Below are positions 4,851 through 39,880 of a stretch of 64,000 nucleotides of DNA, in pieces. The notes below the pieces were generated by a model. The model was given only the letters and a program-made list of their open reading frames with translations. It did no database searches and was not told the origin of the DNA. This stretch comes from Escherichia coli (GTDB taxonomy: Bacteria; Pseudomonadota; Gammaproteobacteria; Enterobacterales; Enterobacteriaceae). Both the position numbers and the translations under genes were made by a program. Location of the stretch: the NCBI RefSeq assembly GCF_003334405.1, contig NZ_QOWM01000005.1; one strand, 5' to 3'. How positions within the stretch are numbered: position 1 is the stretch's first letter; the number at the start of each line of letters is the position of its first letter.

Positions 4851-5831
4851 ATGAACGCAATAATATCGCCTGATTATTACTATATTCTTACCGTTGCTGG
4901 TCAGTCTAATGCCATGGCGTATGGCGAAGGACTGCCATTACCGGACAGGGAAGATGCGCCTCATCCCAGAATTAAACAATTAGCGAGATTTGCGCATACG
5001 CATCCCGGAGGCCCGTCATGTCACTTTAACGACATTATTCCACTGACTCACTGCCCACACGATGTTCAGGATATGCAGGGTTATCACCATCCTCTGGCAA
5101 CGAATCATCAAACACAGTACGGCACCGTTGGCCAGGCACTGCATATAGCACGGAAATTACTGCCCTTTATTCCTGATAATGCAGGGGTTCTCATCGTTCC
5201 GTGTTGCCGTGGCGGATCGGCTTTTACCGCGGGCAGCGAAGGAACATATTCAGAACGGCACGGAGCCAGCCATGATGCTTGTCGTTGGGGAACGGATACT
5301 CCGCTATACCAGGATTTAGTCAGCAGAACGCGAGCCGCACTGGCAAAAAATCCGCATAACAAATTCCTCGGCGTATGCTGGATGCAAGGCGAATTTGACT
5401 TAATGACCAGTGACTACGCGTCACACCCTCAACACTTTAATCATATGGTTGAAGCCTTTCGTAGGGATCTAAAACAATACCATTCTCAGCTTAATAATAT
5501 TACTGACGCACCGTGGTTTTGCGGCGATACCACCTGGTACTGGAAAGAAAATTTCCCTCATGCGTATGAAGTTATTTATGGCAATTATCAAAATAATGTT
5601 TTAGCCAATATTATTTTCGTCGACTTCCAGCAACAAGGTGAAAGAGGACTGACGAACGCGCCTGATGAAGACCCGGACGATTTAAGCACGGGATATTACG
5701 GTTCAGCGTACCGGTCACCGGAGAACTGGACGACGGCACTGCGAAGCAGTCATTTCAGCACGGCAGCCCGTCGGGGGATTATTTCTGACAAGTTTGTAGA
5801 AGCAATTTTGCAGTTTTGGCGCGAAAGGTGA
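4851..5831 (+). CDS. nanS: 9-O-acetyl-N-acetylneuraminate esterase NanS
   Basis: ORF from ATG 4851 (MNAIISPDYYYILTVAGQSNAMAYGEG...) with the GQSN esterase motif; third gene of the nanCMS operon order. Confidence 0.85.
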   Translation: MNAIISPDYYYILTVAGQSNAMAYGEGLPLPDREDAPHPRIKQLARFAHTHPGGPSCHFNDIIPLTHCPHDVQDMQGYHHPLATNHQTQYGTVGQALHIARKLLPFIPDNAGVLIVPCCRGGSAFTAGSEGTYSERHGASHDACRWGTDTPLYQDLVSRTRAALAKNPHNKFLGVCWMQGEFDLMTSDYASHPQHFNHMVEAFRRDLKQYHSQLNNITDAPWFCGDTTWYWKENFPHAYEVIYGNYQNNVLANIIFVDFQQQGERGLTNAPDEDPDDLSTGYYGSAYRSPENWTTALRSSHFSTAARRGIISDKFVEAILQFWRER

Positions 5832-5838
5832 GCGTTCA

Positions 5839-6489
5839 TTAATTTGATTTATTCGCATCCATCAGCGCTTTTAACTGCTCCGGCGTAAACGGTGGTTTGC
5901 GTCGGTGCAACATCGCATGGCAATTAGGGTACACAGGCAGCAAATCATTAACTGGATCCAGCTGGTAATCCTCTTTAATGGCTGACAGCGGCACCAGGTG
6001 ATGCACATGGATAAAGCCTTCAGCGATATCACCATAGATCTTCACCAGATCAACACCGCATACGTTGCACTGGCATCCATGATGTTCGACCGCTTTATCT
6101 CGGGCCTTTTTATCGCGTTCATAGCGGTTTACTGTCACCTTTATCGCCGCACCTTCAAGGTATGTCTCCTGCGACGGCAACTCATCCGGGAACAGAACGT
6201 CGGCTATGGGAGCCGCAGCGGCTTTATCCAGATGAATATGAAATCCCTGCTCTATGAGTAGCTTGACACATTTAGATTTTATTCCGCCGGTGAAATCCGC
6301 AGGGGTAAATTGCGTCCCCGTCATCAATGTCGCTGCGATGCCAGCAATCGCCTTCGAGGGGTAACGTCGGCCATGATATTCAATCTCATACAACCGCGCA
6401 GGCTGGAACTGATGAGTTTCTCCCGCATCCCATAAATGGATAGCTTCGATGATATACCGCCGCGGAAGATGATCAGGGAGTTTATTCAT
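5839..6489 (-). CDS. McrA-like HNH endonuclease (candidate modification-dependent restriction enzyme)
   Basis: 216-aa ORF; C-terminal HNH motif CQCNVCG...HVHHLVPLS...NDLLPVYPNCHAMLH; N-terminal ~100 aa unassigned putative DNA-recognition domain. Confidence 0.55.
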   Translation of the reverse strand: MNKLPDHLPRRYIIEAIHLWDAGETHQFQPARLYEIEYHGRRYPSKAIAGIAATLMTGTQFTPADFTGGIKSKCVKLLIEQGFHIHLDKAAAAPIADVLFPDELPSQETYLEGAAIKVTVNRYERDKKARDKAVEHHGCQCNVCGVDLVKIYGDIAEGFIHVHHLVPLSAIKEDYQLDPVNDLLPVYPNCHAMLHRRKPPFTPEQLKALMDANKSN

Positions 6490-7257
6490 GGAGAATGTCC
6501 TTATACGTTCTCAGAACAGGCAGCAAAAAAACAAATGAGATCAAGGTAATATATCTTCACTTGCAGGCTTGAACAGCAGAAAATTTGCGAGCATGATCGC
6601 AATTATTTCACTGCCAGGGATATCAATAGCTTCCAGTAAATCGCTACAGCAGGCAATTGCCAATATAAAAATCTGGCACAAGGGTGAACAGCGCGCGCCG
6701 CATAAGCCATTGTTATTGCTATACGTATTAGCGGGATACCTGAATGGACATCCGCGCCTTTTCGATTATTGTAGTGGAACAGTCTACGAGGATGCAGTTC
6801 GAAGTGAGTAAGTAAAGGTTGCTGGAAACGATCAATGCCGCCATACAATGATTTTTTAGGATCAACAATGAGTAATAAAAACTACGAAAGTCACCGCAAA
6901 GCGATTGTTAGTAAAGGTATACCACCCGCTCTATTAAATAGGCTCACCAATTCGGATGTTCAGGTGATCAATACCTTCTTAACACGAGTGAGCAAACTGG
7001 AACTATCTCAACAAGAGAAAGACTGGATCATAAAAATCATCTCTATGGTTTAGACAATTTCAGCCTTGTAGCCTTTCAAGGGTTTTGTGTGGGTACAAAC
7101 ATTATCGAATCGGGGTATAGCCGCAGCTGTAGCTGTATCCACATCAGTAAGTTGATGTAGGTTGACTTAGGTTGAGCGAAAAATAGCGAAAAGCCTTGTG
7201 TGGCGCGGATTTCAGTCATAAAAAAACGTCCGTTGATGTCTATTGATGTTCCGATGG

Positions 7258-7300
7258 TGCGAAGGTGCAAAGGTGCGAAGGCCGGACTCAAACATGTGAC
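7258..7300 (-). repeat. Degenerate direct repeat of the leuX tRNA 3' end (att remnant marking the distal island boundary)
   Basis: GGTGCGAAGGCCGGACTCAAAC, with an internal duplication, resembles TGGTGCCGAAGGCCGGACTCGAACC at 44497-44521; about 100 bp below it also resembles the leuX-proximal flank. Confidence 0.5.
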
Positions 7301-7770
7301 TTAACCTCATGATTTAAAATTGTTAATAATAAACAATATCATCTTATACCAACACAGATACCAACACGAAAAATCACTGGTTTTCGGCATCGAACCAGGA
7401 CAATCAGCTCCTGATTGAGATACCGAGCTCTGTTACTCGTCATCTTCCTCGACAGGCTTCATTGCATCAAGTAGTACTCGCACCATCGCGATAGAACCAA
7501 TCCGGATAAAAGCATCTTCTCCATCTATATCTGTTAACTGATATCGCTCACTTGATGCCGGATAATTGTGTCGATTTGCAGCAGTGAACTCTTTCGTACA
7601 GCCAGAATGCGGCGGATGCTGGTTGAGCAGATAACGTCCGTATTCTCGTTGACCACTTCCGGACGGTAGGCTGTGATATCAGACATAATCGATATTCCTT
7701 TTTGCAGATAAATGAAAATGCCAGCCCTGTTCAGGCTGGCGTCAGTGGAATGAAGTCTGGTGAGTAAGAC

Positions 7771-7968
7771 TCACCGGTTCTGGTGCTGAAGCTGCAGTTG
7801 GCGCAGGGTACGGATATCCTCTCTGGCCTGTTCGATACAGGGCAACAGTGCTGCTGAATCCGTTTTATCCTCATTGTTGTCAAAGATAATTCCCGATTCG
7901 CAGTCGATATTGTCCTGCAGCCACGCAATCAGAATATCCAGTGCGGTTTCCGTGGTTAATGATTTCAT
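7771..7968 (-). CDS. Small hypothetical protein of the CP4-like prophage remnant
   Basis: ORF MKSLTTETALDILIAWLQDNIDCESGIIFDNNEDK... downstream of the toxin-antitoxin cluster; no motif recognised. Confidence 0.3.
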   Translation of the reverse strand: MKSLTTETALDILIAWLQDNIDCESGIIFDNNEDKTDSAALLPCIEQAREDIRTLRQLQLQHQNR

Positions 7969-8839: not shown

Positions 8840-8928
8840 ACTGAAGGTTTTCCTGATATGCAGAGATGAAAAATGGAAAAGTGGCGTGGTGAAAGCACCA
8901 GGCCGGAGCAGAAGGTTATTCCGGTGGT

Positions 8929-24852: not shown

Positions 24853-25620
24853 ATGACTTTACGAACTGAAAATCTGACGGTCAGTTACGGGACAGACAAG
24901 GTACTTAACGACGTTTCACTCTCACTGCCAACGGGGAAGATCACCGCCCTGATCGGTCCTAACGGTTGCGGGAAATCGACGCTGTTAAACTGTTTTTCGC
25001 GGCTTTTAATGCCGCAGTCTGGCACCGTATTTCTCGGCGATAATCCCATAAATATGCTCTCATCGCGCCAGTTGGCCCGCAGGCTTTCGCTGCTGCCTCA
25101 GCACCATTTAACGCCAGAGGGGATCACAGTCCAAGAGCTGGTTTCGTATGGTCGTAATCCCTGGCTGTCACTCTGGGGGCGTCTCTCCGCTGAAGACAAT
25201 GCACGAGTTAATGTCGCCATGAACCAGACCCGGATCAATCATCTTGCCGGTCGTCGGTTAACCGAGCTTTCCGGCGGTCAGCGCCAGCGCGTATTTCTGG
25301 CGATGGTCCTGGCCCAGAATACGCCCGTTGTATTACTTGATGAGCCAACCACCTATCTTGATATCAATCACCAGGTGGACCTGATGCGGTTGATGGGCGA
25401 ACTCCGGACTCAGGGGAAAACGGTGGTCGCTGTGCTGCACGACCTTAATCAGGCTAGCCGGTACTGCGATCAACTGGTGGTAATGGCAAACGGACATGTT
25501 ATGGCGCAAGGCACACCAGAAGAGGTGATGACCCCAGGATTGCTGAGAACAGTATTCAGCGTGGAAGCGGAAATACACCCCGAGCCGGTATCTGGCAGGC
25601 CGATGTGCCTAATGAGGTAG
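24853..25620 (+). CDS. fecE: Ferric citrate ABC transporter ATP-binding protein FecE
   Basis: 255-aa ORF with Walker A GPNGCGKST, LSGGQRQR signature and Walker B VLLLDEP. Confidence 0.9.
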   Translation: MTLRTENLTVSYGTDKVLNDVSLSLPTGKITALIGPNGCGKSTLLNCFSRLLMPQSGTVFLGDNPINMLSSRQLARRLSLLPQHHLTPEGITVQELVSYGRNPWLSLWGRLSAEDNARVNVAMNQTRINHLAGRRLTELSGGQRQRVFLAMVLAQNTPVVLLDEPTTYLDINHQVDLMRLMGELRTQGKTVVAVLHDLNQASRYCDQLVVMANGHVMAQGTPEEVMTPGLLRTVFSVEAEIHPEPVSGRPMCLMR

Positions 25621-26177
25621 ATTGCACAGGCCGTAAGAACCAAACCACGACTGAATGAAACTGGACTGGCGCCAGCAAGCCTGTTCAGACTGGGGCTGAA
25701 CTTTTCCGGACTCTGAAAGATTACCAATACTCATCGTCCATCCGCTTGCTTTAGGCTGACAGGTTCATAATCAACGCAAACCAGAGCTGTACAGGCTTGG
25801 GCGCGGCTTTCAAACCAGTCGTGATCACGGCAATCAATTTTGAACTCTGCTTAACGGACATTTCTGTATAACCCTTACGGCAACGAAAAACGCGAAGTTA
25901 AAATTTTAGAAACCCAAAAACGTGACATGACTAAGTTTAGATTTCAGGGGGGGAGATCAAAAAATTTCGCTCTGTGCCAGAGCGGACATTCACGGAGCTG
26001 GTTCATTACCAATGAGGTTGGGCTTTTGAGGATAAATCAATGATCAGACGCCAACGTAAATCAAAAGCAACCCTGGAACGGAATTGCTAATCCAGTTTCT
26101 GACCATCGATTTTTCTAAAAAGTGTGCGTTTGCTACTACTTAGGTAGGTGCAGCTTTCTTAATCACCGGCAGCCACG

Positions 26178-26519
26178 TTATACAGGCCAGTTGATGGATC
26201 GATTGTTATCAATGATATCTTCATGAGTCGGTGTCTCACCCAGCTTACCGAAGCTGGCATAAAGTGAAGGCAGACGGGCCCGTCCTTCTCCCTTTTTCGC
26301 CAGAGGGAAAGCGCGAAGCATGGTGGCAGCCTCCCAGTCACAACAATAGGATGGTGTGCACGGCTGCTGACGCCATGATTCAGCGATAGAGCCGGAAAAT
26401 ACGGGGTCAAAGCCGGTATCATTAACCAGAGTCATCGTGACCTGTACTGCGGCTGGATGATCTCCTGCTACTGCAACTGCTAGGCGACCGCGGCTCCCTT
26501 CAGGTAGTGAAGTGGTCAA
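26178..26519 (-). pseudogene. Possible C-terminal fragment of a dinucleotide-binding oxidoreductase-like gene
   Basis: 113-aa ORF isolated between the fec and dnd modules with no obvious N-terminal domain; assignment is a weak guess. Confidence 0.25.
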
Positions 26520-26837
26520 CTTAAACTGGCCACCGATTTAGAGTTTTTCCAGTAGCGGTGTTCCGATTCGTTTGGGGGCAACCCGCCGTTATTGTCATGC
26601 GGTCTTAGCGAGCTGTAATACCCGATGATATAGTCTGTGATCGCATGAGCAGCTTCGCTAAAGCTTATGCGTTAGCGCTCTACAGAAGTACAGAGCATGT
26701 CTGCACGGTTGCTCTGGGTTATAGAGCAAAATTGCGGGTATATTGAAAGGTGGTACGCAATTTATTACGTGAAAAAGCTGTAATTTCTAGCCAGTGTTAC
26801 GTAAAATATAACGTAACAAAATTCACCTTATGCTTTT

Positions 26838-27935
26838 ATGGATTACAGCATGGCTAGTGTTGATGCAGATTACTGCTACTCGTTTCCGGCTATACGTGGC
26901 ATTCAGGCTGGTCGCCCTTTCTATATCGCCACATGCCCGATGCGTATCATCCCGAAAATATTCAGTTTTGATGAAAATGATGTGCCACCGGAATTACGCG
27001 CACAGCGCACGCTAAATAAATCGCGCATTCCCGAGATGGTACGTTATTTGTTGGAAAACCCTAAAGATTATGTGTTTTCAGCTCTGACGGCTTCCATTGC
27101 CGTAGACGTTCAATTTGATGAGTTTCCAGGTTCTAACAATCTGGGGACGTTGTGCGTACCAATGGATGCGCAAATTCTAATCAATGATGGACAACATCGC
27201 CGTAAAGCGATTGAAGACGCTTTAGACGCTCGTCCGGAGCTGGGCCAGGATAATATCCCGGTGTTGTTCTTTGTCGATGAAGGCTTAAAGCGTAGCCAGC
27301 AGATGTTCGCCGATCTGAATAAATACGCCATTCGCCCCAGCCCATCGCTGGCGTCGCTATACGATCATCGCGATGCCTGTTCGAATCTGGCGCGTTATCT
27401 GGCAATGTCAGTAGAGCCGTTTGTTGGGATGACGGAACTGGAAAAATCTGGCATTAGCCAGAGGTCGAATAAGCTATTTACGTTGAGCAGCATCAAGCAG
27501 GCTACCCGCGCATTGTTGGGCAAAGATCCCAAAGAGGATAACTTTGAGGAATGCACCCACATTGCTACCCAATATTGGCAGGCTATTTTTAGTGTAATGC
27601 CTGATTGGCAATTAGCGGCTAAAAAGGAAGTTTCACCGGTTCAATTGCGACAAGATTATGTTCACGCTCATGGCATTGGATTGCAGGCACTTGGGCAACT
27701 AGGATATACCCTGCTGACGGATTATCCTGAGCAATGGCCGGAGAAAATCGCTGCACTCAAAACATTTAACTGGCGTAGAAACAATCCGGACCTCATCAAG
27801 CGAGCGATGCAGCATGGGAAGTTGAGTAAAACCAGTACCGCGATCCAGTTAACCTGCAATGCGCTAAAAACCGCACTCTCAATTCCCCTCACTCCTGAAG
27901 AACAGGAGCTTGAAGCTCAAATGGTTGTCTCATGA
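26838..27935 (+). CDS. dndB: DNA phosphorothioation regulator DndB (DGQHR domain)
   Basis: 365-aa ORF containing the DGQHR motif (INDGQHRRKAI); first gene of a dndBCDE-ordered cluster. Confidence 0.85.
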   Translation: MDYSMASVDADYCYSFPAIRGIQAGRPFYIATCPMRIIPKIFSFDENDVPPELRAQRTLNKSRIPEMVRYLLENPKDYVFSALTASIAVDVQFDEFPGSNNLGTLCVPMDAQILINDGQHRRKAIEDALDARPELGQDNIPVLFFVDEGLKRSQQMFADLNKYAIRPSPSLASLYDHRDACSNLARYLAMSVEPFVGMTELEKSGISQRSNKLFTLSSIKQATRALLGKDPKEDNFEECTHIATQYWQAIFSVMPDWQLAAKKEVSPVQLRQDYVHAHGIGLQALGQLGYTLLTDYPEQWPEKIAALKTFNWRRNNPDLIKRAMQHGKLSKTSTAIQLTCNALKTALSIPLTPEEQELEAQMVVS

Positions 27936-29554
27936 GTAAATTAGTTCAGGCCTATGATTTGGCCGAATACGAAGATTTTATTAATCAGGAACAGTTCGCC
28001 GGACGTCCTCTGGCCGAATATGTTGCTGAGGTTCAACGAATTTATTGTGCGGATAAACGTCCGTGGGTGATTGGCTACAGCGGTGGGAAAGATTCTTCCG
28101 CTGTGATCACGCTGGTGTATCTGGCCTTGCTCGGCCTGCCCCCGGAAATGCGCAGCAAAGATATTTTTGTGGTGTCGTCCGATACGCTGGTCGAAACACC
28201 GGTAGTCGTGGATCTGATTAAGAAAACGATGTTGCAGATTGAGGCGGGAGCGAAGCGTAACGGCTTGCCGATCACTCAACACGCGGTAACGCCTAAAACG
28301 AATGAAACCTTCTGGGTCAATTTGCTGGGGAAAGGTTATCCGGCTCCAACTCGTAGTTTCCGTTGGTGCACTGAGCGCATGAAAATCAACCCGGTGAGTG
28401 ACTTTATTAAAGATAAGGTCAGCCAGTTTGATGAAGTCATCGTCGTACTTGGTTCGCGCAGTAGTGAAAGTGCTTCTCGTGCGCAGGTGATCGCAAAGCA
28501 CAAGATTGATGGATCACGCCTTGCCCGGCATACCACGCTGGCAAATGCATTCATCTATACCCCCATTGATACCTGGGATGTAGAAGATGTCTGGAAGCTG
28601 CTGCGGGGCGCGTTCCGCTATGCCCCTGAAGATATCGACGAGTGGGAAAGCCCGTGGGGTGGAAACAACCGTCCACTGTGGACGTTGTATATGGATTCTT
28701 CCGCACAGGGTGAATGTCCTCTGGTAATTGATGATAGTACCCCTTCCTGCGGCAACTCGCGTTTTGGCTGTTGGACCTGTACCGTTGTCACTAAAGATAA
28801 GGCGATGGAAAGCCTGATCAAAAACGGTGAAGAATGGATGTCTCCGTTGCTGAAATATCGTGATCTGCTGGCATTTACCACCGATCCGGTGAATAAAGAC
28901 ACGTTTCGAAACTATAAGCGCCGTACTGGTAAGGTGAGCTATCAGTACGCTAAAGAAAGTGATGAGCCGGGGGCTGAGCGTAAGCATGTTCCAGGTCCTT
29001 ACTGGCTAAAATACCGTCAGCAATGGCTCAAAGAATTGCTGGAGATAGAGCGCGATTTGAATGCTCAAGGCCATACCATTACGTTAATTACCAAACCAGA
29101 GCTGCATGCGATTCGTCAGGAGTGGTTGAAAGATCCTAATGAACCAGACTGGTATGACACGCTGCCGGGTATTTACCGTGAAGTGTATCAACAGGATTTA
29201 GACTGGGTGGTGGACGATCAGTCGCGCTTTGATGCCAGCGATGCAGATCTGTTGGTGCAGATAGCGCAGGGATTTGACGTTGTGCCTGAAATGGTGATGA
29301 AACTCATCGAGCTGGAAGTTTCAATGGAAGGCTTAAGCCGTCGTCAGGGCATTTTTGACAAACTTGGCACGATTTTAAAGCAGGACTGGGGCACTCTCGA
29401 AGAAATTGAACAACAACAGGTCACTCTGCAAAAACGAGTTGAACGAGATATTCATCAGGAAGAACTTACAAAGCTGGAAACTGAACTTCAGGTTTTACAG
29501 CGCAGAATTGTTGATGCCAGTGAATCCTCGTTACTGATTGGGGAGGAGAAATAA
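27932..29554 (+). CDS. dndC: DNA phosphorothioation protein DndC (PAPS reductase-like PP-loop ATP pyrophosphatase)
   Basis: 540-aa ORF with PP-loop SGGKDS (IGYSGGKDSSAV) and conserved Cys cluster; overlaps the dndB stop. Confidence 0.85.
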   Translation: MSKLVQAYDLAEYEDFINQEQFAGRPLAEYVAEVQRIYCADKRPWVIGYSGGKDSSAVITLVYLALLGLPPEMRSKDIFVVSSDTLVETPVVVDLIKKTMLQIEAGAKRNGLPITQHAVTPKTNETFWVNLLGKGYPAPTRSFRWCTERMKINPVSDFIKDKVSQFDEVIVVLGSRSSESASRAQVIAKHKIDGSRLARHTTLANAFIYTPIDTWDVEDVWKLLRGAFRYAPEDIDEWESPWGGNNRPLWTLYMDSSAQGECPLVIDDSTPSCGNSRFGCWTCTVVTKDKAMESLIKNGEEWMSPLLKYRDLLAFTTDPVNKDTFRNYKRRTGKVSYQYAKESDEPGAERKHVPGPYWLKYRQQWLKELLEIERDLNAQGHTITLITKPELHAIRQEWLKDPNEPDWYDTLPGIYREVYQQDLDWVVDDQSRFDASDADLLVQIAQGFDVVPEMVMKLIELEVSMEGLSRRQGIFDKLGTILKQDWGTLEEIEQQQVTLQKRVERDIHQEELTKLETELQVLQRRIVDASESSLLIGEEK

Positions 29555-29555
29555 C

Positions 29556-31556
29556 GTGCTCATTAAACAGCTGGTATTACATAATTTTCGGGTATTTAAC
29601 GGTACACATACCATTGATCTGGCACCCAGAAAGCGTCCGCACGATTTGAATCCACGACCTATTGTGCTGTTTGGTGGTTTAAACGGCGCAGGGAAAACGT
29701 CTATCCTGTCGGCGATCCGCATAGCGTTGTATGGACGACTGGCGTTTGGGCTAGCGACTCAACAGCAAGAGTATATCGAACAACTCAGTGCATTGATTCA
29801 TAACGGCGCGTACTATATTGAGCAGCCGGAAGAAGCATCTGTAGAACTGACGTTTACCTATAATAAAGGCGGTCATGAGGCCGAATTTACCGTTACGCGA
29901 ACCTGGAAAAAGGGGAAGAGGGACCGCCTTTCTCTGCAACAGGATGGGCAGCCACTCAGTGAGCTGGATTACGATCAGTGCCAGGGATTTCTAAATGAGT
30001 TAATTCCGCATGGCATTGCTGATTTGTTCTTTTTCGATGGCGAGAAAATTGCAGAACTTGCTGAGGACGAATCCGGTAATATTTTACGTACTGCCGTACG
30101 ACGCTTATTGGGGCTGGATCTCATCTCTAAACTGCGTAACGATTTAATGATTTTTGTTAAGCGTCAGCAATCCAGCCAGCTAGCAAGTTCTCAGCAACAA
30201 CAGATTGCAGAGCTTGAAAAACAGAGTAAAGAATTAGCCTGCCAGACAGAAGCACTGCTGGAAAGCGCCGATTTTGCCAAATCGCGGATTGAGTTTCTAT
30301 CTAAAGATATAACCCATTATGAAGGCTTGCTAAATGCTCAGGGGGGCGCTTTTGCCCAGACTAAAGCGCAGGAAAAACAGAAAGTCGAAACGCTGCTAAA
30401 AGATAAAGAACATCTGGAAAAAGCACTGAGACAAGAATGCGATGGCTCGCTACCTTATGCGCTTGCGCCCACTATTTTGTCTCATTTGCTGCAACAAATT
30501 GCTGATGAAACGCAAATTAAACAGGCAAAAAGCTTTGAAAAAGAGCTGAGCCAGTTTTTAACGCAACTCAGAAATGATATTGCATTTCGTTCTGCGGGGA
30601 CTGGCAAAATAGCAGCTGAAGCGATTACCGATAATCTAAAAGATTATATGGCAACGAAACCAAAAGGTGATTTGCTCTTTGATATCTCTGAGCGTGAAGC
30701 AGGTATGCTTCAACAGTCTATTGAGATAGATAGTAAAAGAGCATGGCAGCGTTTCGAGCTTTATCGCACACAGTTATCTGAGATTGAACAACAGTTAGAA
30801 CAAGCGGCTGCTAATATTGCCCGCGCTCCTGAAGATGAGCAGCTGATGGATCTCTTTGAAAAATTACGTGACCTGGATAGGCAGCGCGAAGCCCAATTGC
30901 AGAAATATCGGTCATTGCTAGAAGATGCTAAACGTAAAAAACAGCAGCAACTGGATTGTGTTCGTCAGATTCAAAAAGCGCATGACGCCGCTCGTTATCA
31001 GCACAGTTATAGCAGTGCGTTTAAGAATGCTCAGGAAACGATAAATTTACTCGATCGCTACAGCGATGTATTAACCCAGGCTCGGGTAAAAACGCTGTCG
31101 ACAAACTTCGAGCTTGCTTACCGTAAGTTGGCTCGCAAAGAGGATTTACAACTTAGTGCGCATATCAACCCTCAAACGTTTGATGTTGAATTAATTGATG
31201 AGAATGGCTCAGTAATTAACCGTAAGTTACTTTCTGCTGGTGAAAAACAGATTTATGCAATTGCTATTCTTGAGGCGCTGGCGAAAACCTCTGGCCGTGA
31301 TTTACCAGTGATCATTGATACACCATTGGGTCGTCTGGACTCTCAACATCGAGATAAATTGATTAATCACTACTTCCCTGAAGCCAGTCATCAGGTTGTG
31401 TTGCTTTCTACCGATACTGAAGTAGATGAACGTTATTTTGTTGATCAGTTGCGTGATGATATCTCTCATGCTTATGAGATTGTGTTTAATGCACATACTA
31501 AGTCATCAACGCTGAAGCCTGGTTATTTCTGGGAATTAACTAAGGAGGCTATCTGA
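29556..31556 (+). CDS. dndD: DNA phosphorothioation SMC-like ATPase DndD
   Basis: Walker A GGLNGAGKTS, long central coiled-coil, C-terminal signature/Walker B region; likely start GTG 29556 after GGAGGAG, whereas the ORF track uses TTG 29538. Confidence 0.85.
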   Translation: MLIKQLVLHNFRVFNGTHTIDLAPRKRPHDLNPRPIVLFGGLNGAGKTSILSAIRIALYGRLAFGLATQQQEYIEQLSALIHNGAYYIEQPEEASVELTFTYNKGGHEAEFTVTRTWKKGKRDRLSLQQDGQPLSELDYDQCQGFLNELIPHGIADLFFFDGEKIAELAEDESGNILRTAVRRLLGLDLISKLRNDLMIFVKRQQSSQLASSQQQQIAELEKQSKELACQTEALLESADFAKSRIEFLSKDITHYEGLLNAQGGAFAQTKAQEKQKVETLLKDKEHLEKALRQECDGSLPYALAPTILSHLLQQIADETQIKQAKSFEKELSQFLTQLRNDIAFRSAGTGKIAAEAITDNLKDYMATKPKGDLLFDISEREAGMLQQSIEIDSKRAWQRFELYRTQLSEIEQQLEQAAANIARAPEDEQLMDLFEKLRDLDRQREAQLQKYRSLLEDAKRKKQQQLDCVRQIQKAHDAARYQHSYSSAFKNAQETINLLDRYSDVLTQARVKTLSTNFELAYRKLARKEDLQLSAHINPQTFDVELIDENGSVINRKLLSAGEKQIYAIAILEALAKTSGRDLPVIIDTPLGRLDSQHRDKLINHYFPEASHQVVLLSTDTEVDERYFVDQLRDDISHAYEIVFNAHTKSSTLKPGYFWELTKEAI

Positions 31557-31909
31557 TGCTCCCGAATCGAATGGCGCTTAGCCGTCAGACTGAAGATCAG
31601 CTTAAAAAGCTTAAAGGGTATACTGGGATTACACCCAATATTGCTGCCCGGCTAGCATTTTTCCGCTCGGTGGAGAGTGAGTTTCGCTATTCACCTGAAC
31701 GAGATAGTAAGAAGCTGGATGGTACGCTGGTGCTGGATAAAATTACGTGGCTGGGGGAGACACTACAAGCTACAGAATTGGTGCTGAAGATGCTTTATCC
31801 ACAATTAGAGCAAAAGGCGTTGATTAAGGCATGGGCTGCTCATGTTGAGGATGGGATTGCGGCATTGAGAAATCATAAAAGTTTAATTAGCTTATTAAAT
31901 GCTATATAA
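31556..31909 (+). CDS. dndE: DNA phosphorothioation protein DndE
   Basis: 117-aa ORF overlapping the dndD stop; size and position fit DndE. Confidence 0.8.
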   Translation: MLPNRMALSRQTEDQLKKLKGYTGITPNIAARLAFFRSVESEFRYSPERDSKKLDGTLVLDKITWLGETLQATELVLKMLYPQLEQKALIKAWAAHVEDGIAALRNHKSLISLLNAI

Positions 31910-31950
31910 AACATTTAAATTTATTGGTATGACCTTTTGTTTTCAACCTA

Positions 31951-31986
31951 AAACCACCTCCTAGGGAGGTGGTGATTGAGTTTTAT
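31951..31986. terminator. Bidirectional stem-loop terminator between convergent dndE and the ATPase gene
   Basis: Perfect palindrome CCACCTCC-CTAGG-GAGGTGG at 31954-31973 with an A-rich tract upstream and TTTT downstream. Confidence 0.5.
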
Positions 31987-31991
31987 AATTG

Positions 31992-33155
31992 TCATATTGC
32001 TAATTTTAAAATTAATTCACCGGCATCAGGCGAATGTATCAGCGTAGCTAAATGTGAACCACACTTGCAAGAATTGAAGTTGCTGTCCACTTTAAATTTA
32101 AAGCGTCCGTTAGCAACCTCAGCATATCGGTAATTTTCATTCTCACTTTTCTCTTTTAGTTCGATCCTGAATTCATTATTGATATTTTCTAAGCAATATA
32201 AGAATTTTTCTATCTCATATTCGTTAGTTTCAATCCAAAGAGCAATTGCAAAACCCTTTAAGGTAGATAAATGCTTATCCGATAAGATTTTAGACAGCTC
32301 AATGAAAAAATCATGATGATCACAAGTCATAGCATCGAACTCGCCCTCAAGATAATCGGCATCCACGCCTAATTTTGCAGCATAAGCCTGAATGTTATTT
32401 TTTATACACTCTATAACTTCTGCTTCTGGTGGTAAATTATTTTCTGAGGGTAGGAAAACATTTTTAATACAATCTGAATTTATTCCTCTGCTTTTAACTT
32501 GATCGGCATCGTAAACAGATACTATGTTCAGGCCAGAGCTATCTTTATAATGCTCAGATACTTTTTGTATATTAGATTCACCTTGTAGATTATGTAAGTA
32601 ACATGTAGAGTAAAGATGTGTGTTTTTTATTTTTAAGATATATTCAAGTACAAGTTTTGCAAAGTCATCCTCTATCAGGAAAATATTTTTCCTTTCAGGA
32701 GCTAAACCCAGTGCATTGAAATATCTATAATTATATCCACAATTTGATATGGTATATTTTTTGCCTTTTTTAGCTAAGACTAATACTGAGTTTAAGCCTT
32801 GAGGGCTGAGTATGTGTTCAGAGTGAGTAGCCATCAAAACATTTAATTTTTTAGTATCGATTGTGTAGGCTAAAAAATCCATGAAATTTTTCTGGCTTAC
32901 CGGGCAAATAAAACTCTCTGGCTCTTCAATGAAGAGGATTGAATTTTTTTCCGTATAAATAAGTTTCCAGATTGCTATAAGTAACTTATGTTCTCCTTGC
33001 CCCATACTCTCTGACGTATAAACTATATTACTGTTAACCTCTTTAACCTCAAAGTATGGGAAAGTTAAATCATCAATAATTCCTTCTACCTCATTAACTT
33101 TTACATACTCATATTTCTTGCCTGTGATTTTCTGAACAAAAAAAAAGATTTTCAT
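31992..33155 (-). CDS. ABC/OLD-like ATPase, C-terminal part (Walker B, H-loop and TOPRIM-like region); separated from its N-terminal part by a frameshift
   Basis: 387-aa ORF with LFIEEPESF (Walker B-like), MATHSEHIL, and a TOPRIM-like IFLIEDDF ... YDAD; begins with ATG directly abutting the T9 tract. Confidence 0.6.
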   Translation of the reverse strand: MKIFFFVQKITGKKYEYVKVNEVEGIIDDLTFPYFEVKEVNSNIVYTSESMGQGEHKLLIAIWKLIYTEKNSILFIEEPESFICPVSQKNFMDFLAYTIDTKKLNVLMATHSEHILSPQGLNSVLVLAKKGKKYTISNCGYNYRYFNALGLAPERKNIFLIEDDFAKLVLEYILKIKNTHLYSTCYLHNLQGESNIQKVSEHYKDSSGLNIVSVYDADQVKSRGINSDCIKNVFLPSENNLPPEAEVIECIKNNIQAYAAKLGVDADYLEGEFDAMTCDHHDFFIELSKILSDKHLSTLKGFAIALWIETNEYEIEKFLYCLENINNEFRIELKEKSENENYRYAEVANGRFKFKVDSNFNSCKCGSHLATLIHSPDAGELILKLAI

Positions 33156-33603
33156 TTAGCAAATGATAAGAATTTGATGTATTGAACCATCCATTTTTGT
33201 TTGGCGATGTGTTTATTTCGTTTATGATTTTTAATGCCATTGATGAAGCATCAAAATATTCAACATTTCTTAGTCCATCACCCAAAGACGAAGTGAAAGT
33301 TTGTTTCTCTCCATTAATTATTATATCAATGGAGATATTATCAATATCAGAAGAGCTAAAAATCCCAACATTACATATATCTTTCGACAGTATACCATAG
33401 ATAAGTTTCAATAACGACGTTTTACCAATGCCATTTCTTCCACATATAGAGGTTAAAGCTGAGTTTATCGTAATATCAGCATCTTCAAAGAGTGGTACAT
33501 TCTTAATGGATAAACTACATATTTTAATATTAAACTTTTTCCTGTTTGCCACATGATTCCAATAATCAGCTAATTTTGCCATTTTAATTGTTTCTATTGA
33601 CAT
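33109..33603 (-). CDS. ABC/OLD-like ATPase, N-terminal part (Walker A)
   Basis: 164-aa ORF with Walker A GRNGIGKTS; it reads through the T9 tract and terminates 12 codons later. Removing one T joins it in frame to the 387-aa ORF. Confidence 0.6.
   Translation of the reverse strand: MSIETIKMAKLADYWNHVANRKKFNIKICSLSIKNVPLFEDADITINSALTSICGRNGIGKTSLLKLIYGILSKDICNVGIFSSSDIDNISIDIIINGEKQTFTSSLGDGLRNVEYFDASSMALKIINEINTSPNKNGWFNTSNSYHLLNENLFFCSENHRQEI
33138..33146 (-). repeat. T9 homopolymer (A9 on the plus strand) at the junction of the two ATPase ORFs
   Basis: Nine consecutive A at 33138-33146 on the plus strand; on the coding strand ATC TTT TTT TTT GTT. Confidence 0.8.
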
Positions 33604-34799
33604 GTAGTTACCCCCGCTAAAACAGAATCTGCATAATTGTTGACGACGCTTATCAGATTCTTTTCATTTTCATGATAAAGTGCTCTATGCGCAGTTTTTA
33701 GATTATTTTTTTTCATCGTATTGAACACATCTGCTTTACTGGGGTCACTCTTCAAGAAAAATAGAGATATTATAAAGTCTCTGATGAGTAAGGAAGTACC
33801 AGTCATTACTCTTGATACAGCCCTAAAATTAAATTCTTCCAATAACTCCTTTACTTCATCTTTATTTTCACAATAAAACAATCCATCCAACACTCCCTCT
33901 TCTCTGAAAACGAATCTACCACTTTCAAAGCGGTAAAAGAAATCACTAAGGCTATCGTCTAAATTATAATTCGATTTTAAAATGGTTGAAAAAAAATAAA
34001 GCCATGAAGTTAAAGTGGCTTTTGTTATATGAACCTTACTTTCTTCACTATCAATCTTTTTCTTTGCCTTACTTAATATTAAAATGGATTTTTTTACTAG
34101 TTCTATGATTGAATTATCAAAAGGCTCATCTTCACGAGCCCTGTCGTTTAATTGCTTTTCTGTATAAGAAGCAATCAATGAATCCTTCTCAAGCATGTAG
34201 CAAAGTTTAATGAAAAGATCATGGTATGCCATCCTTTGATTACTAAAGCCTAGAAAGTGCTTGTCAAGCCCACAATCCGACATATAATCTACGAGAGATT
34301 TTATCTGGTTTCTTAAATCGCCAACATAAGCATTTCTCTTTTCTGCTGAAGTTAATTTAAGAGATTCATTCAATCTGTTGAATAGTTCACCGGGCTCTCC
34401 CTGATTGTATTCAACAATCTCAAATACTCGAATGGCATACCGTTCAAATCTGTTTTTTATTCTTTGAGGTAATTTATCAAAAGTTAATCCATCTAATTCT
34501 TTGATATCATCATCAATAGGTTCAATTAATCCATTTATTTTGAATTTATTATACATGAAATCTCTTATGGCACTTAATCGTTGCTGTCCATCGAGAACTT
34601 CTTGAATATAGGAATCTTCATTTAAAATAACATGGACAGGTGGAACCTGCCACCCTCTTAGAATAGTATCGATTAAAAGTTTTTTCTTCGGAAGTTGCCA
34701 GACTTCCGCCCTCTGGAAATCGGGTTGGAGATCTAGACTTCCTTCATGAATCCTAGAAAATATAGTCCTCAAATCTGGATCTGTAGTATTTATTTTCAT
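33594..34799 (-). CDS. DUF262-like (ParB/Srx-fold, DGQQR motif) protein
   Basis: 401-aa ORF with LQPDFQRAEVWQ ... VLDGQQRLSAI in the N-terminal 100 aa; its ATG overlaps the dptH stop (ATGA at 34796-34799). Confidence 0.65.
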   Translation of the reverse strand: MKINTTDPDLRTIFSRIHEGSLDLQPDFQRAEVWQLPKKKLLIDTILRGWQVPPVHVILNEDSYIQEVLDGQQRLSAIRDFMYNKFKINGLIEPIDDDIKELDGLTFDKLPQRIKNRFERYAIRVFEIVEYNQGEPGELFNRLNESLKLTSAEKRNAYVGDLRNQIKSLVDYMSDCGLDKHFLGFSNQRMAYHDLFIKLCYMLEKDSLIASYTEKQLNDRAREDEPFDNSIIELVKKSILILSKAKKKIDSEESKVHITKATLTSWLYFFSTILKSNYNLDDSLSDFFYRFESGRFVFREEGVLDGLFYCENKDEVKELLEEFNFRAVSRVMTGTSLLIRDFIISLFFLKSDPSKADVFNTMKKNNLKTAHRALYHENEKNLISVVNNYADSVLAGVTTCQ

Positions 34800-37700
34800 T
34801 TCATTAACTCCCAGAATGCTTTATCACGCATTTTCCTAACTTTTTTATTTCCATCTATATACAGGCTAAAATGCTTCTCAAGTTGTCGTATCTGGCCCAT
34901 TAAAGACTCCTGCTCACTTTTATCGTCAATGTTAAATACCGCCTTAATGTCCGAATTCCTAATCTCAGAAACTCGATGAATTACCCAAGTGAGAATATAA
35001 GAAGCATAATTATTCTCGCCTGTTTTAAAGTGAGTAATTTCTTGTGTTGATAGAATCGCCCCTACACCATATTCACGGCCTTCTTTAAGGATTTTACGCA
35101 AGCTGGCAAAATCCTGGCGCATAAAGTTATCGGCTTCATCAACCAGAATCATTTTGGTTAACTGGCGATAATCACCTCGCACCGTCGGTTTCCCACGCTT
35201 TTGCATCTGCGCATAAAAAAGATCCAGTGTCAGTGCAACTACCAGGTTTTGAATCTCTGATGGATAACCAGCGAGTTCGATAACTGTGACTCCATCAACC
35301 AGATCGTACAAACTGGTCATCTTCTCTGGATCCGTTTCAAAAATCTGGAAACCAGCCAGATTATAAAGTGCAGCATATAATGAATCTTCGTCGACCTTCT
35401 CTTGTGCCAGGTACTGCTGCCACACATCTTCAATAGTCGGTGCTACACGATTCCATGTTGATCGATCATGAGGCACTATTCCTGCTAAGTCATAGCACTC
35501 CATTATTAACGTAACCAGCTTCATGCGTTGTTTTACGCCAAGGTTATACGCTTTGCCCATCGTTTCAGCGAATGCCATGGCCGTATGCCTCGGTAACATG
35601 GGCATATCACCAAATAACGATAACGGATTGTAAGGTAACAACGATAGCTGATACCTCTTAGCTCCCGTAGCTTCAAGAAACGCATCATCCACATAGTCGG
35701 ATTTATAGTCGAAGATCAACAAGCCAATCGGTTTACCGTCAACGTTGTAGGACTGATTGCGCATCAGTTGCGTAACCAGCGATTTAGTAAACTGGGTTTT
35801 CCCGGTGCCCATTGTTCCAATAATGCCGGTATTAGTATTCATGAACTTAGCGGTGTTGGTTGGTTCCCAGTACAATGGATTCTGACGCACAGCATCATGA
35901 CCAAACAAGATCTGTAATGGTGTATTGCGGACATTACTGGGGGTTAGTGCCGATGCTTCAGGTTGTGGAAGCTCCAGCGCAGAAATGGGCGGCGGCTCAG
36001 TTGTTGTTGCTACCTGTACTGGGTGTGAAGAATTGACATCACACTCTGGTTTGAGCAGATATTTTTCCGGCACCCGATAGCGTTCAGCTAGTGGAGGTTG
36101 ATCACCTTGTGCTGCAATTAACGATGGAAGCAATGAATAGGGGATTTCGATCTGTAGAATATTCTCTGCCGTTTCTTTATAAGAGAGATCAAAACAGGTT
36201 CCGCTGTCTACATGAGCTACCACAAAGCCTTCTGCATAATCAGCAAGCTCACCTAACTGATAGTCGCCAGTGAGCCACCATTCACGTCGTTCCAGCAGAG
36301 GGGATAGCTTGTCGTTATCCAGTACACCATACAGACGCAACTTCTCTACCTGCATTAATACTTGGCGGATAAAAAGTGCCCGGTATAGTTGTGATGCTAG
36401 AGTTTTCGGCCCAAGAATATCTTGCTGTAAATAGCGTTTTAGCTCGCGGGCCTGCTGCCCCGCATGGTTGTAATCGGGGCGAGCTCCTGTTTTTACTTCA
36501 AGTGGTAACAGATACAGGTTGTTATCTTTGAAACCGACAAAGAGCACATCGTCAGAGATCGCTCCTTTCTGATAACCCTGTAAATGGCGCGATAAATCGC
36601 TTTCTTTCATTCTCAGCCCGACGTTGCCGGACACGCGGATCATCTCAGCTACTGACAGTGGAATCCAGCAAATATCTGACTGGAGCAGCATAGACTGTAC
36701 GAATTTGTATGCACCGATAATGCCGTGTTTTTCTTTGCGCTCCTTTTCATTTGAACGCAACATTTTTAACAGCCACTCACCGTTAAAGGCATTAAATTCA
36801 GCAAGTAGTTGCTGGCTATCAACGGTGGATTGTCCTGTTTGAAGGAGACGCAGGAACAACTCAACCTGTTTTGTGACAGTTACGGCGTCATAACCAGCAC
36901 AACTGGTGTACTGGTCAGAGTAATGAATTAGTACGACATCTTTTTGACTAGTAAAGAAATCGAGTGTGACCTTAGGGTCGATAATTGTGGTCCAGAGAGA
37001 GCTATCATAAGAGCGATTCAGCAGTTGCTTAAAGTTACCGCTCACAGCCAGACTAATTCCCTGACCGTGATACTGGCTGTTGCTCTGCCGTGCCGGTTGC
37101 CACAGACAGCCTAACAAGCGGGCGAGACGCAGGGCGCAAGACGATTCAGTATCGACATTACGCAGACCAAACGCGGTAAAGTAAGCATCGCCTTGTGTTT
37201 CAGCCCCTTCGCCTGCAATCAAGCCATGACATAAAACCCCGCTGGCAGCATCCTCAATGCGAATTTGGCGGCAATCAACCGGTGCGGTGTTGGTGAAAAA
37301 TGCGAGATGGGCGTAAGCCAGTTGATCGCTTTCCGGTGGCAGGATAAATTTGCTGAATGTTAAGCGACTGCGAAGCAGATCGATCAACATATCGGCTTCA
37401 GAACGCCACGCACCGCTGTTCAGACCAAGATCATTTTTAAGTTGTTCATAGCTGCCGCTTTCGGCAAAGCGGTCAAAGGCATTGGGTAGCAGACGTTCGT
37501 CATAGCAGTTTACGTGTATCGAAATTGCGTTATCTTTTTCCTGCTTAAAATAATCTACCAGTCCCAGGAATAGCTCTCTGGCTTCTCCCATATTAATAGC
37601 ATTAATAACCAGGGCATTATTTCCTGCACTCTGGAACAGCCGAGAATAGGCATCTGTAAATTCGTTTAGCTTGTCTTTCACCAGACGCTTAACATATTCG

Positions 37701-39880
37701 TGGCTCATCTGGCGCTGGGGAACAATATCTATCCAGAAGCGGTTTTCTACCATCGGTTGTAACTGTGCGTATTCATGTTCGCTATGATACACAAATGGCA
37801 TTAGGCCAGAGACGACCAGACGATCTAGAGTAATCTCTGGTAATGAAGCGAAGGAAGCTGATGTGGGGTATCCGGGCTCGGCGATAATAGTTTCAGCTAG
37901 CTGTAAATGATAAGCCATTACCAATGGGTGCAGAGGCGAGAGACGTTCATAATCGTCGCCGCGGCAAATCCCCAGATGTAACAGACGTTTTTCCTGGATG
38001 GTTAATGCTCTGCTTAGACTGATTTGCTGTAATGCCTGTTCAAAAGTAGCGATCATGTGACTGACTAATACACGATATTCTGCTGACCATGACACCAGAC
38101 TCGGCAGGGTATTTCGACGTTGATAGTAAACGAACAATTGGTGGTACGCATTATGGAGGTCGGGATAGCTCGCCAGAAGCTCATCCAGTGCAAACTCACT
38201 ACCATTACTGCCAGTGCTGAGCAGATTACGCTCGATCAGGGCGTACTCTTGCATAAGCAACTGCTGGCGAACACCAACCACATTATGTTCGATATTGTCC
38301 AGGATGACGCGACCTTTCAACTTGTTCCAGGTTGCATTCCCTTCTTCTTTAAAGAGTTTATTGAAACGACCCTGATCAAAAAGCAGAGGCAGTGTTAATC
38401 CTTCCTCTGCTCCTGGACCTTCGATGTTAAACAGTAAACGGGAGTCACCTGAAATCAAGGTAAATTTGATCAGCTCACTTTGATTCGCCAGCGTTTCAAA
38501 ATTAACGAGTGCATAATGGCGGCAATCAACATCATCACTTTCTTCATCAAGTAAACAGGTCTTGTCGCCGAACTCTGCAATACGTAACTCATTATCTTCC
38601 AGTTGCAGAGTTAATTGACCTTTACCAGGTTCAATACGATAACAATGCTGGATTTCATTAAGCCAGAATTGCCCTTGTTCAACTAACAGCAGGCGAAACT
38701 TGTACTCTTCTGCTGAGTTATTGCGGTTAATGATTTCGAGGCTAAAGAAGCAGGGCCGACCATCAAAAGGCACTGATGCCAGTATCTTAGAGTTTCTCCC
38801 CCCGAGCCGGCTAGTACGCCAGAATCGTTCTTTCTGTAACGGACGATGATGAGCAATTTTTACCTGATTGTCCTGAAGGTCGTTACCCTGGAAGATAAAC
38901 TCCAGCTCAACTTGTGACTGCCCCGGTAGAACCTGAACCAGGACACTGATATCTCGTTTACCTGCTTTACTGGTGCTTTTGGCTCTTTGCCAGACCTCAC
39001 CGTTTTCAGCAGTAATGTTTTCCAACACCAGTTTCTGTTCACTGTTTTGTGCTTTTTCATTCAGGTAGACGGAGAAATCAAGCTCACGCCAATCGTCATT
39101 GTCAACGAAATGCTCCTGAATGAATTTTGCACTAAATTCAGTTAGTACATTCTCCAGTTGCCCGCTGTAGCGTTCAACACTGTCCTCTATCTGGCGATAT
39201 AACTTTTGGTTTTCATTGAGCCGGGCGCGCAACTGCTTATCACTAAAATTCAGCAGGTTATTATCGTTGAATAACTTTAGCTCTGAGAAATCCAGATTGC
39301 CGTCGTCCAGCAGACGGTATAACGATGAAAATCCAAAAACCGTAGCGCCTTCATCCAATATTGTTGTCAACTGATCGCCCAGCAAACAGCGGGATACTTG
39401 AGAACGGGCGCTGTCCGTTGTGATTAACTTTTCGAGCTGGTGACGGAAGGTTTCTGGATGCCAGATAGCATCCGGTGCAGCGACATCTTTGGTACTATTG
39501 AGTAAGGTATCCAGCATGCTGTTGTGGATAATCAACAACGCTGTCTGGGCAAAAATGCCATTGCGGCCAGAAACCTGATCGCGTAAATGAGAAATATAGT
39601 TTTCTGTGAATGCAGGGGTAGTGGTGCCGTGCAGTACCGGAATAAGCTGGATATTATTACATTGGACGTAGGTAAGAAATTGCTCCGGTGCAATTTCTAG
39701 TTTATTTCCATTTGCTAAAGAGTCGAAAGCCTTCCAGAGCTTTAAGGCGTTATCCGGATCGGGAGATTTAAACTGGTAGCGCTCACCAGGCTGGATGATG
39801 CTGCTAACCCATTCAATGAAGGTTTCTGCCAGATAGGTTTCATACTGTTTTACGGACATATACGGCGTCTCCACTGTCAC
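34796..39880 (-). CDS. dptH: Phosphorothioation-dependent restriction protein DptH/DndH (large multidomain ATPase)
   Basis: 1694-aa ORF; C-terminal Walker A GTMGTGKTQ and Walker B ILVDEADNF; third gene of a DptF(549)-DptG(441)-DptH(~1700) array. The true start may be the internal ATG near 39859. Confidence 0.8.
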   Translation of the reverse strand: MTVETPYMSVKQYETYLAETFIEWVSSIIQPGERYQFKSPDPDNALKLWKAFDSLANGNKLEIAPEQFLTYVQCNNIQLIPVLHGTTTPAFTENYISHLRDQVSGRNGIFAQTALLIIHNSMLDTLLNSTKDVAAPDAIWHPETFRHQLEKLITTDSARSQVSRCLLGDQLTTILDEGATVFGFSSLYRLLDDGNLDFSELKLFNDNNLLNFSDKQLRARLNENQKLYRQIEDSVERYSGQLENVLTEFSAKFIQEHFVDNDDWRELDFSVYLNEKAQNSEQKLVLENITAENGEVWQRAKSTSKAGKRDISVLVQVLPGQSQVELEFIFQGNDLQDNQVKIAHHRPLQKERFWRTSRLGGRNSKILASVPFDGRPCFFSLEIINRNNSAEEYKFRLLLVEQGQFWLNEIQHCYRIEPGKGQLTLQLEDNELRIAEFGDKTCLLDEESDDVDCRHYALVNFETLANQSELIKFTLISGDSRLLFNIEGPGAEEGLTLPLLFDQGRFNKLFKEEGNATWNKLKGRVILDNIEHNVVGVRQQLLMQEYALIERNLLSTGSNGSEFALDELLASYPDLHNAYHQLFVYYQRRNTLPSLVSWSAEYRVLVSHMIATFEQALQQISLSRALTIQEKRLLHLGICRGDDYERLSPLHPLVMAYHLQLAETIIAEPGYPTSASFASLPEITLDRLVVSGLMPFVYHSEHEYAQLQPMVENRFWIDIVPQRQMSHEYVKRLVKDKLNEFTDAYSRLFQSAGNNALVINAINMGEARELFLGLVDYFKQEKDNAISIHVNCYDERLLPNAFDRFAESGSYEQLKNDLGLNSGAWRSEADMLIDLLRSRLTFSKFILPPESDQLAYAHLAFFTNTAPVDCRQIRIEDAASGVLCHGLIAGEGAETQGDAYFTAFGLRNVDTESSCALRLARLLGCLWQPARQSNSQYHGQGISLAVSGNFKQLLNRSYDSSLWTTIIDPKVTLDFFTSQKDVVLIHYSDQYTSCAGYDAVTVTKQVELFLRLLQTGQSTVDSQQLLAEFNAFNGEWLLKMLRSNEKERKEKHGIIGAYKFVQSMLLQSDICWIPLSVAEMIRVSGNVGLRMKESDLSRHLQGYQKGAISDDVLFVGFKDNNLYLLPLEVKTGARPDYNHAGQQARELKRYLQQDILGPKTLASQLYRALFIRQVLMQVEKLRLYGVLDNDKLSPLLERREWWLTGDYQLGELADYAEGFVVAHVDSGTCFDLSYKETAENILQIEIPYSLLPSLIAAQGDQPPLAERYRVPEKYLLKPECDVNSSHPVQVATTTEPPPISALELPQPEASALTPSNVRNTPLQILFGHDAVRQNPLYWEPTNTAKFMNTNTGIIGTMGTGKTQFTKSLVTQLMRNQSYNVDGKPIGLLIFDYKSDYVDDAFLEATGAKRYQLSLLPYNPLSLFGDMPMLPRHTAMAFAETMGKAYNLGVKQRMKLVTLIMECYDLAGIVPHDRSTWNRVAPTIEDVWQQYLAQEKVDEDSLYAALYNLAGFQIFETDPEKMTSLYDLVDGVTVIELAGYPSEIQNLVVALTLDLFYAQMQKRGKPTVRGDYRQLTKMILVDEADNFMRQDFASLRKILKEGREYGVGAILSTQEITHFKTGENNYASYILTWVIHRVSEIRNSDIKAVFNIDDKSEQESLMGQIRQLEKHFSLYIDGNKKVRKMRDKAFWELMK

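Follow-up and report, generated by a model that had tools for sequence, protein, structure and literature searches.

Remnant of an integrase-side arm beside the displaced leuX end of an Escherichia coli dnd/dpt/fec island points to an earlier integration at the same tRNA gene

The window analyzed here, the whole 64,000-nucleotide stretch of an E. coli contig (NZ_QOWM01000005.1), contains a single tRNA gene called by ARAGORN, leuX, coding for tRNA-Leu(CAA) (44497 to 44581, minus strand). It is both the functional copy of the tRNA gene and the integration target of an approximately 37.2-kb island (7290 to 44496). Beside the 3' end of the intact leuX, and on the same strand, lies a gene for a 422-aa tyrosine integrase of the P4 family (43029 to 44297, minus strand; NCBIfam PRK09692, E 2e-83), which is 58% identical over 411 aa to P4 Int and 78% identical to the leuX integrase of STEC383 and whose RefSeq relatives are annotated as "integrase arm-type DNA-binding domain" proteins. 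The annotation of the island was taken from JNEC-KY180, which is 100% identical over the aligned parts. In order from leuX, the island carries the integrase, dptFGH, two nuclease genes, dndBCDE, IS fragments, fecIRABCDE, IS66, and a CP4-like module with genes for antirestriction, RadC/JAB, YeeU/CbtA, DUF957, and other products, and it ends at a core (7272 to 7289) derived from leuX. Islands at leuX bearing fec genes (PMC7545054) and dnd genes (PMC2663466) have both been described before.

The core at 7272 to 7289 is a fragment of the leuX 3' end displaced to the far end of the island on the same strand (a match of 17 of 18 positions) and represents the island's distal attachment site. Exact copies of the 13-mer GAAGGCCGGACTC are limited to two in the window, at 7277 and at 44504. 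A third exact copy of GAAGGCCGGA (60221 to 60230) is no tRNA fragment but makes up the stem of an unrelated hairpin that resembles a terminator (GAAGGCCGGAGCATGCTCCGGCCTTTTTT). To the right of the core is the distal arm of the island, a CP4-like end (7290 to 7450) with two copies of ATACCAACAC at 7349 to 7374; other genomes share sequence only rightward from 7271/7272, in other contexts, and distal arm and core are found together in 1675 genomes. The exact ends of the island are thus fixed at 7272 to 7289 and at the leuX 3' end (44497 to 44516). A tRNA 3'-end fragment had been predicted at this junction, and one is present there, but it is not a single copy: Tandem Repeats Finder (TRF) detected an 8-bp unit, GGTGCGAA, repeated 3.8 times on the displaced tRNA 3' terminus (7252 to 7281), of which only the last unit runs on into the core. 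The number of copies varies between strains, with one in L006, L007, and L009, two in L001, three in the window, L003 to L005, and L017, and four in L002 and L018, and it tracks the left-hand sequence described below rather than the right-hand island.

On the other side of the junction, toward nanS, we found an HNH endonuclease gene (216 aa; 5839 to 6489, minus strand), whose product has RefSeq relatives annotated as HNH endonucleases and a weak match to the NCBIfam model PT-DNA_restrict. It is followed by the first 54 codons of a gene for a phosphorothioate-dependent restriction endonuclease of the SBD-HNH type (6626 to 6789, plus strand; NCBIfam NF045808, E 8e-17). In a tblastn search with the product of the complete 290-aa restriction gene of 1002W03, the window is 91% identical over aa 1 to 54, after which the match ends; complete versions of the gene are also found in L006 and E2348/69. 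The same 5' fragment lies beside nanS in K-12. A query with the 3' part of the restriction gene matched 3861 of 5426 E. coli genomes, most of them only over the first 94 bases and 1703 of them over at least 80%. We further scanned one genome per species with the complete restriction protein and recovered 42 loci. Homologues of the HNH gene stand beside the restriction gene in Citrobacter and Enterobacter, and in several loci of these genera, as well as in Silvania and Huaxiibacter, the HNH gene (minus strand) is followed by the restriction gene (plus strand), whose TGA stop codon is followed immediately by GTGC-GAAGGCCGGACTC, with no integrase arm between them; the islands beyond this junction of restriction gene and core differ among these loci. 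In Mixta, Hafnia, Rosenbergiella, and Citrobacter amalonaticus, we found a paralogous order of leuX, integrase, and restriction gene, all on one strand. The restriction gene family is therefore tied to leuX elements, but the copy on the nanS side constitutes a deep, conserved boundary of the hotspot. The HNH gene is likewise part of this conserved boundary module beside nanS and is not demonstrably cargo of a lost element.

The junctions of the module in other genera show some further peculiarities. The TGA of the restriction gene lies inside the apparent displaced CCA end of leuX (TGAGTGC-GAAGG versus TGGTGCCGAAGG), with neither a spacer nor a terminator before the core, in L176 to L179, L185, L187, L200, L202, and L214 (at about 8870 to 8890) and in L140, L148, L152, L156, and L167. 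In Citrobacter sp. wls619 (L181, 8870 to 8927), a 51-bp fragment identical to the 3' half of leuX follows the stop codon of the restriction gene. Its 3' terminus, GTGC-GAAGG, is one C short, has no CCA end, and abuts the stop codon, and at its other end it reaches the anticodon loop, although no tRNA is called there. This suggests that the hotspot is also used by a different class of element, whose crossover takes place in the anticodon loop.

Between the truncated restriction gene and the sequence adjoining the core lies an orphan segment of 278 bp (6790 to 7067) with a 72-aa ORF (6835 to 7053, plus strand). The segment always accompanies the truncated restriction gene and was recovered from 970 E. 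coli genomes, in some of which the arm described below is missing. Protein searches with the 72-aa ORF returned only near-identical E. coli hypothetical proteins of 61 to 72 aa, with no Pfam domain and no NCBIfam match; the ORF is E. coli restricted, is annotated in only some of the RefSeq genomes, is followed by a terminator-like hairpin (7064 to 7081), and is also carried by a few plasmids, where it lies between copies of IS1 (L015). In the window, the dead phosphorothioate-dependent restriction gene adjoins an island with dndBCDE and dptFGH (25500 to 42900), next to which an intact copy might attack the modified DNA of the cell itself. We considered whether the arrival of the dnd island had forced the truncation and rejected this idea, as the orphan segment, a marker of the truncated form, is present in about 970 genomes and the truncated form also turns up next to islands of other kinds and at loci that have none, leaving a causal link unsupported.

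The remaining stretch, from the orphan segment to the core, is related to sequence at the opposite end of the island. Pairwise blastn of 7000 to 7400 against 44200 to 44600 returned three colinear matches, all on the same strand. The longest pairs 7151 to 7244 with 44391 to 44486 (74 of 96 identities, 77%, E 4e-17), and 7276 to 7293 pairs with 44503 to 44520 in the 3' part of the tRNA (17 of 18); a 24-bp box at 7086 to 7109 recurs at 44322 to 44345 (20 of 24, 83%), 25 to 48 bp upstream of the integrase ATG (44297). The stretch from 7068 to 7289 is hence a diverged copy of the spacer between integrase and leuX (44298 to 44520), in the same orientation. This agrees with the original prediction that 7141 to 7300 parallels 44400 to 44521 in the same orientation, and the flank string quoted in its support is found at 7177 to 7226; the flank, put there at about 120 bp, is real but longer, at about 190 to 205 bp (from 7068/7086 to 7271). 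Given the three colinear matches through flank and tRNA and the two copies of the 13-mer, the similarity is not confined to the tRNA-derived repeat. We refer to the integrase-proximal arm of the present island (44298 to 44496) as the proximal arm, to its diverged counterpart (7068 to 7254) as the older arm, and to the latter in its place beside the displaced core as the scar.

The resemblance of the two arms extends to a terminator. That of leuX is called inside the proximal arm (44483 to 44466, minus strand), and its hairpin and T-run are also seen in the alignment, so that the transcription terminator of leuX is supplied by the island's own arm. The older arm retains a decayed copy of the hairpin (7226 to 7240, minus strand) followed on the minus strand by a T-run (7220 to 7226); this copy is not called as a terminator, and a C-to-T change at 7237 disrupts its stem, which the scars of L001 and L002 keep in the perfect form ACGTCCGTTGACGTC. 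The layers of the locus are not separated by base composition, an Rfam search of 5800 to 7800 gave no match, and a promoter scan of both arms yielded nothing useful.

To establish the identity of the older arm, we searched 5426 complete E. coli genomes with the query 7060 to 7300 and obtained matches in 2221 of them; 769 records at 90% identity or more represent the same scar. More distant homologues of the arm, 79 to 87% identical over about 198 bp (E 1e-42 to 2e-59), show where such sequences reside. The STEC383 homologue, 79% identical over 198 bp, occupies exactly the interval from an intact integrase gene to leuX, and PSJ-16 has a similar arrangement. Intermediate states are represented by Ecol_244 (87%) and ESY002 (79.5%), where a related arm adjoins an integrase pseudogene and is followed on the right by a different element, which is a CP4-like island end in one strain and a retron-carrying P4-like satellite in the other. 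An alignment of eight sequences revealed that, in the loci with an integrase, the homology begins a few bases (6 bp) from the integrase ATG and reaches the core. On this comparative evidence, the sequence to the left of the distal repeat is the integrase-side attachment arm of another leuX-integrating element, and, because homologous arms sit between integrase and leuX, it was the immediate downstream neighbor of leuX at the time the present island arrived. Among the genomes searched, no arm more than 90% identical to the scar was found beside an intact integrase (the best values being 87% beside a pseudogene and 79% beside an intact gene). The integrase of the older element had been predicted to be missing, and indeed tblastn with three P4-family integrases (those of the window, STEC383, and P4) against 5700 to 7400 gave nothing better than E 0.08. 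Neither was a second distal repeat closing the older element found: the 64 kb contain only two cores, none of them between nanS and 7252. Displaced integrases that align over their full length are seen in tandem arrays on viral contigs (L078 and L162).

The scar and the island assort independently across strains. We found the same scar arm, at 96 to 99% identity, joined to at least four unrelated right-hand elements, namely, the CP4-like/fec/dnd island (the window and L003 to L005), a fosA7.5 island (L001), another island (L002 and L018), and P4-like satellites (L017 and L112). The reverse holds as well: in L006, L013, and L216, this island end adjoins different left flanks. A chimeric query composed of the scar arm and leuX matched a single one of the 5426 genomes, HCP6S3_I1 (L217, 8700 to 9300), in which nanS, the HNH gene, the restriction fragment, the orphan segment, the arm, an intact leuX, and ahr follow one another with no island. 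This is the only island-free leuX locus that we found in these genomes, and the scar lies directly beside leuX in it. As far as GCGCGGATTTCAG, its arm matches the scar exactly; from there into the tRNA it is of the island type (GCATAAAAAAAGACCTCAGTTGAGGTC...TTTTGGTGCC), the switch from one type to the other lying within GGATTTCAG. The simplest reading of this hybrid is that an island was probably lost by recombination between the two homologous arms, with leuX kept functional. With its hybrid arm, HCP6S3_I1 shows a derived state rather than the ancestral one itself.

On the basis of these observations, we propose, with a probability of roughly 85%, that 7068 to 7289 is a junction between elements stacked at the leuX hotspot, where an older island integrated first and the present island after it. 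P4-family integrases insert islands at the 3' end of leuX, each newcomer bringing its own integrase, integrase-side arm, and tRNA terminator, and whatever sequence lay directly downstream of leuX is pushed to the far end of the newcomer, where it comes to lie beside the short tRNA-derived repeat. The sequence displaced in this case would be an integrase-side arm that came from an earlier member of the same island family: that island presumably occupied leuX first, and the 37-kb dnd/dpt/fec island would have integrated later and displaced it. A deletion probably then took the older integrase and essentially all of the cargo, so that only some 190 bp of the arm, including its decayed terminator, survive, perhaps joined by the 278-bp orphan segment. 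Further to the left, the HNH gene and the restriction-gene fragment belong to a boundary of the hotspot that is still older and widely conserved. At least three layers can accordingly be told apart in the window: the boundary module, which breaks off at 6789, the arm at 7068 to 7254 (perhaps together with 6790 to 7067), and the present island. The tandem integration suggested by the original prediction is supported by the arm homologues between integrase and leuX, by the swapped partners, and by the island-free locus.

The original prediction had also taken the region from 5839 to 7257 as a possible remnant of the older element, and the broadest form of this idea, in which the HNH gene, the restriction fragment, the small ORF, and the arm are all one remnant of an older leuX island, has some points in its favor. 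In LHM10-1, which has only one core at the locus, the restriction-gene fragment is joined directly to an integrase fragment next to leuX, and restriction genes of this family are the first cargo after the leuX integrase in YZ22PE106, Mixta, Hafnia, Rosenbergiella, and others. However, the restriction gene on the nanS side points toward leuX, opposite to the copies linked to an integrase; K-12 has its 5' fragment, and its 3' part is matched at least partly in most of the E. coli genomes in the census given above; and in several other genera its stop codon directly abuts the displaced core, with various islands beyond. From this orientation, from K-12, from the census, and from the junctions in other genera, it follows that the boundary module lies outside the element that left the arm at 7068 to 7254 and is older than it, and we regard a single remnant as improbable. 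What survives of the predicted remnant is at most 6790 to 7271 (or 7068 to 7271). The segment from 5839 to 6789 is not specific to the lost element, as the same fragment beside nanS in K-12, its matches among the E. coli genomes, and the armless loci of other genera indicate.

The other alternatives concern the arm itself. It could belong to the present island, either as its distal end or as an attachment region duplicated in a circular form, and arm and island end are indeed adjacent in 724 genomes. Against this, many genomes share the left side alone (to about 7273) or the right side alone (from 7271/7272), and the exchange of partners in both directions and the scar that stands beside leuX with no island leave such an origin hardly credible. 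Only slightly better placed, and still very unlikely, is the arrival of both elements as one composite or cointegrate in which the arm was internal from the start; the islands of this locus have a mosaic makeup with numerous IS elements, as such an origin would have it, but the scar is independent of its right-hand partner across strains. Since it assorts in this way and occurs without an island, the pattern points to a resident scar with a turnover of newcomers. Finally, the flank is AT rich and contains an A7 run, which could raise the suspicion that a tRNA-derived repeat has merely been extended by chance or low-complexity matches; the 96-bp match at 77% identity with its colinear 24-bp box, and the database homologues over about 198 bp, refute this, and we assign it a practically negligible probability. 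Sequential integration at leuX is therefore the reading that we retain.

A second aspect of the junction is the base missing from its core. The distal core in the window is one C short (GGTGC-GAAGG versus GGTGCCGAAGG in leuX), the gap lying just to the left of the stretch with 17 of 18 matches, whereas in all loci examined the functional leuX has the sequence TGGTGCCGAAGG. The displaced-core loci covered comprise the window (7252 to 7289), L001 to L009, L013, L017, L018, and L023 to L168. Displaced cores read GGTGC-GAAGG in all 12 tabulated E. coli loci, a table that does not include the complete-C form of PCN061, which was found later by searching specifically for it. In a scan of viral contigs with GAAGGCCGGACTCAAA, a pattern that by itself cannot tell the two forms apart, the non-tRNA copies comprised 24 short cores, 1 complete core, and, in L139 and L149, two other indel variants; roughly half of the loci with a short core had entered via an earlier scan for the short form. 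The short core occurs beside arms nearly identical to leuX-adjacent arms (L009 versus L008 and L081 versus the proximal arm of the window), beside the full-length displaced integrases of L078 and L162, and at the stop codon of the restriction gene in other genera, and about ten P4-like prophages have a complete leuX at one end and the short core at the other. Exceptions with a complete CC are the attachment site of phage P4, L147, and PCN061 (L216), the last two being the only displaced cores of this kind that we found. In PCN061 (2840 to 3010 of L216), a displaced arm of the P4 type, with ATGCCCCCAAT repeats, and an IS-disrupted P4-like integrase adjoin a CP4-like island end. A search of plasmids for a free P4-like attachment site returned only misfiled chromosomal pieces.

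Two explanations of the short core can be put forward, and we advance them tentatively. Strands might be exchanged at the extreme 3' end, within TGGTGC, so that the short core comes in with each arriving element instead of being left over from the former tRNA end; alternatively, a one-base "lock" might be needed for stacked islands to persist. Under the second option, the exchange may take place near the junction of T-stem and acceptor, with a recurrent one-base deletion then locking the array. An exchange near this junction is implied by the "J" subsite used in Islander (PMC4383910). The linkage of the 8-bp array to the left arm fits both models of strand exchange. Either reading of the short core, if true, would revise the interpretation of the ends of such islands, and the one-base-short core is the only aspect of the locus that might repay further work.

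The tandem stacking of elements at tRNA genes is in itself an ordinary and already known event, and the understanding of island biology is unchanged by the present case; the scar has no evident function. Two points of more practical interest are that the two homologous arms form a direct repeat and so offer an integrase-independent route to the loss of a whole island with leuX intact, and that layers without an integrase escape annotation tools that require one for each member of an array. In the searchable literature on leuX islands, we found no description of the scar or of the HNH/restriction boundary module.

The closest general precedent is provided by the tandem arrays of Islander, of which 125 are reported among 3919 islands (Hudson, Lau, and Williams 2015; PMC4383910). 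Like these, the locus combines, in a single orientation, a regenerated tRNA gene, an island, a displaced tRNA fragment, and another element's integrase-side end. Islander requires each member of an array to have its own integrase and its own tRNA fragment (PMC4383910). At our locus, the intact tRNA gene with an adjacent integrase and the displaced fragment in the same orientation are present, whereas the inner element has no integrase, only its arm surviving, and the members do not each have a fragment of their own. The inner element, lacking integrase, cargo, and far-end fragment, thus makes this a degenerate array that such pipelines would miss. A comparison can also be made with the satellite phage P4 (int/attP, NC_001609), which shares the leuX target, the core GGTGCCGAAGGCCGGACTC followed by AAACAT as at the distal junction of the island, and the layout of integrase, arm, core, and distal arm. 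The integrase of the present island is homologous to that of P4, and the core corresponds to the leuX 3' end (identical at the proximal site and 17 of 18 at the distal site). Unlike P4, both arms of the window lack the annotated 12-bp arm repeats of the ATGCCCCCAAT type that flank the core in P4, which are present in the displaced arm of PCN061, and carry repeats of the TTGAT/TTGAC type, and the elements here are large islands rather than a satellite phage. The loss of one base at the same position of a different tRNA is seen in intP4-type islands at pheV: their distal repeat is given as TTCGATTCCGAGTCCGG-CACCA, in which a G is missing immediately before CACCA. The missing base is not discussed in that paper (PMC11537424). 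In its hotspot, its integrase family, and its cargo of fec and dnd/dpt modules, the present island resembles the known leuX-associated islands of E. coli (PAI II536, the fec/Ag43 islands of S88, CE10, and ED1a, and KpLE2 of K-12) and the dnd islands at leuX of E. coli B7A, Salmonella, and Enterobacter (PMC7545054 and PMC2663466).
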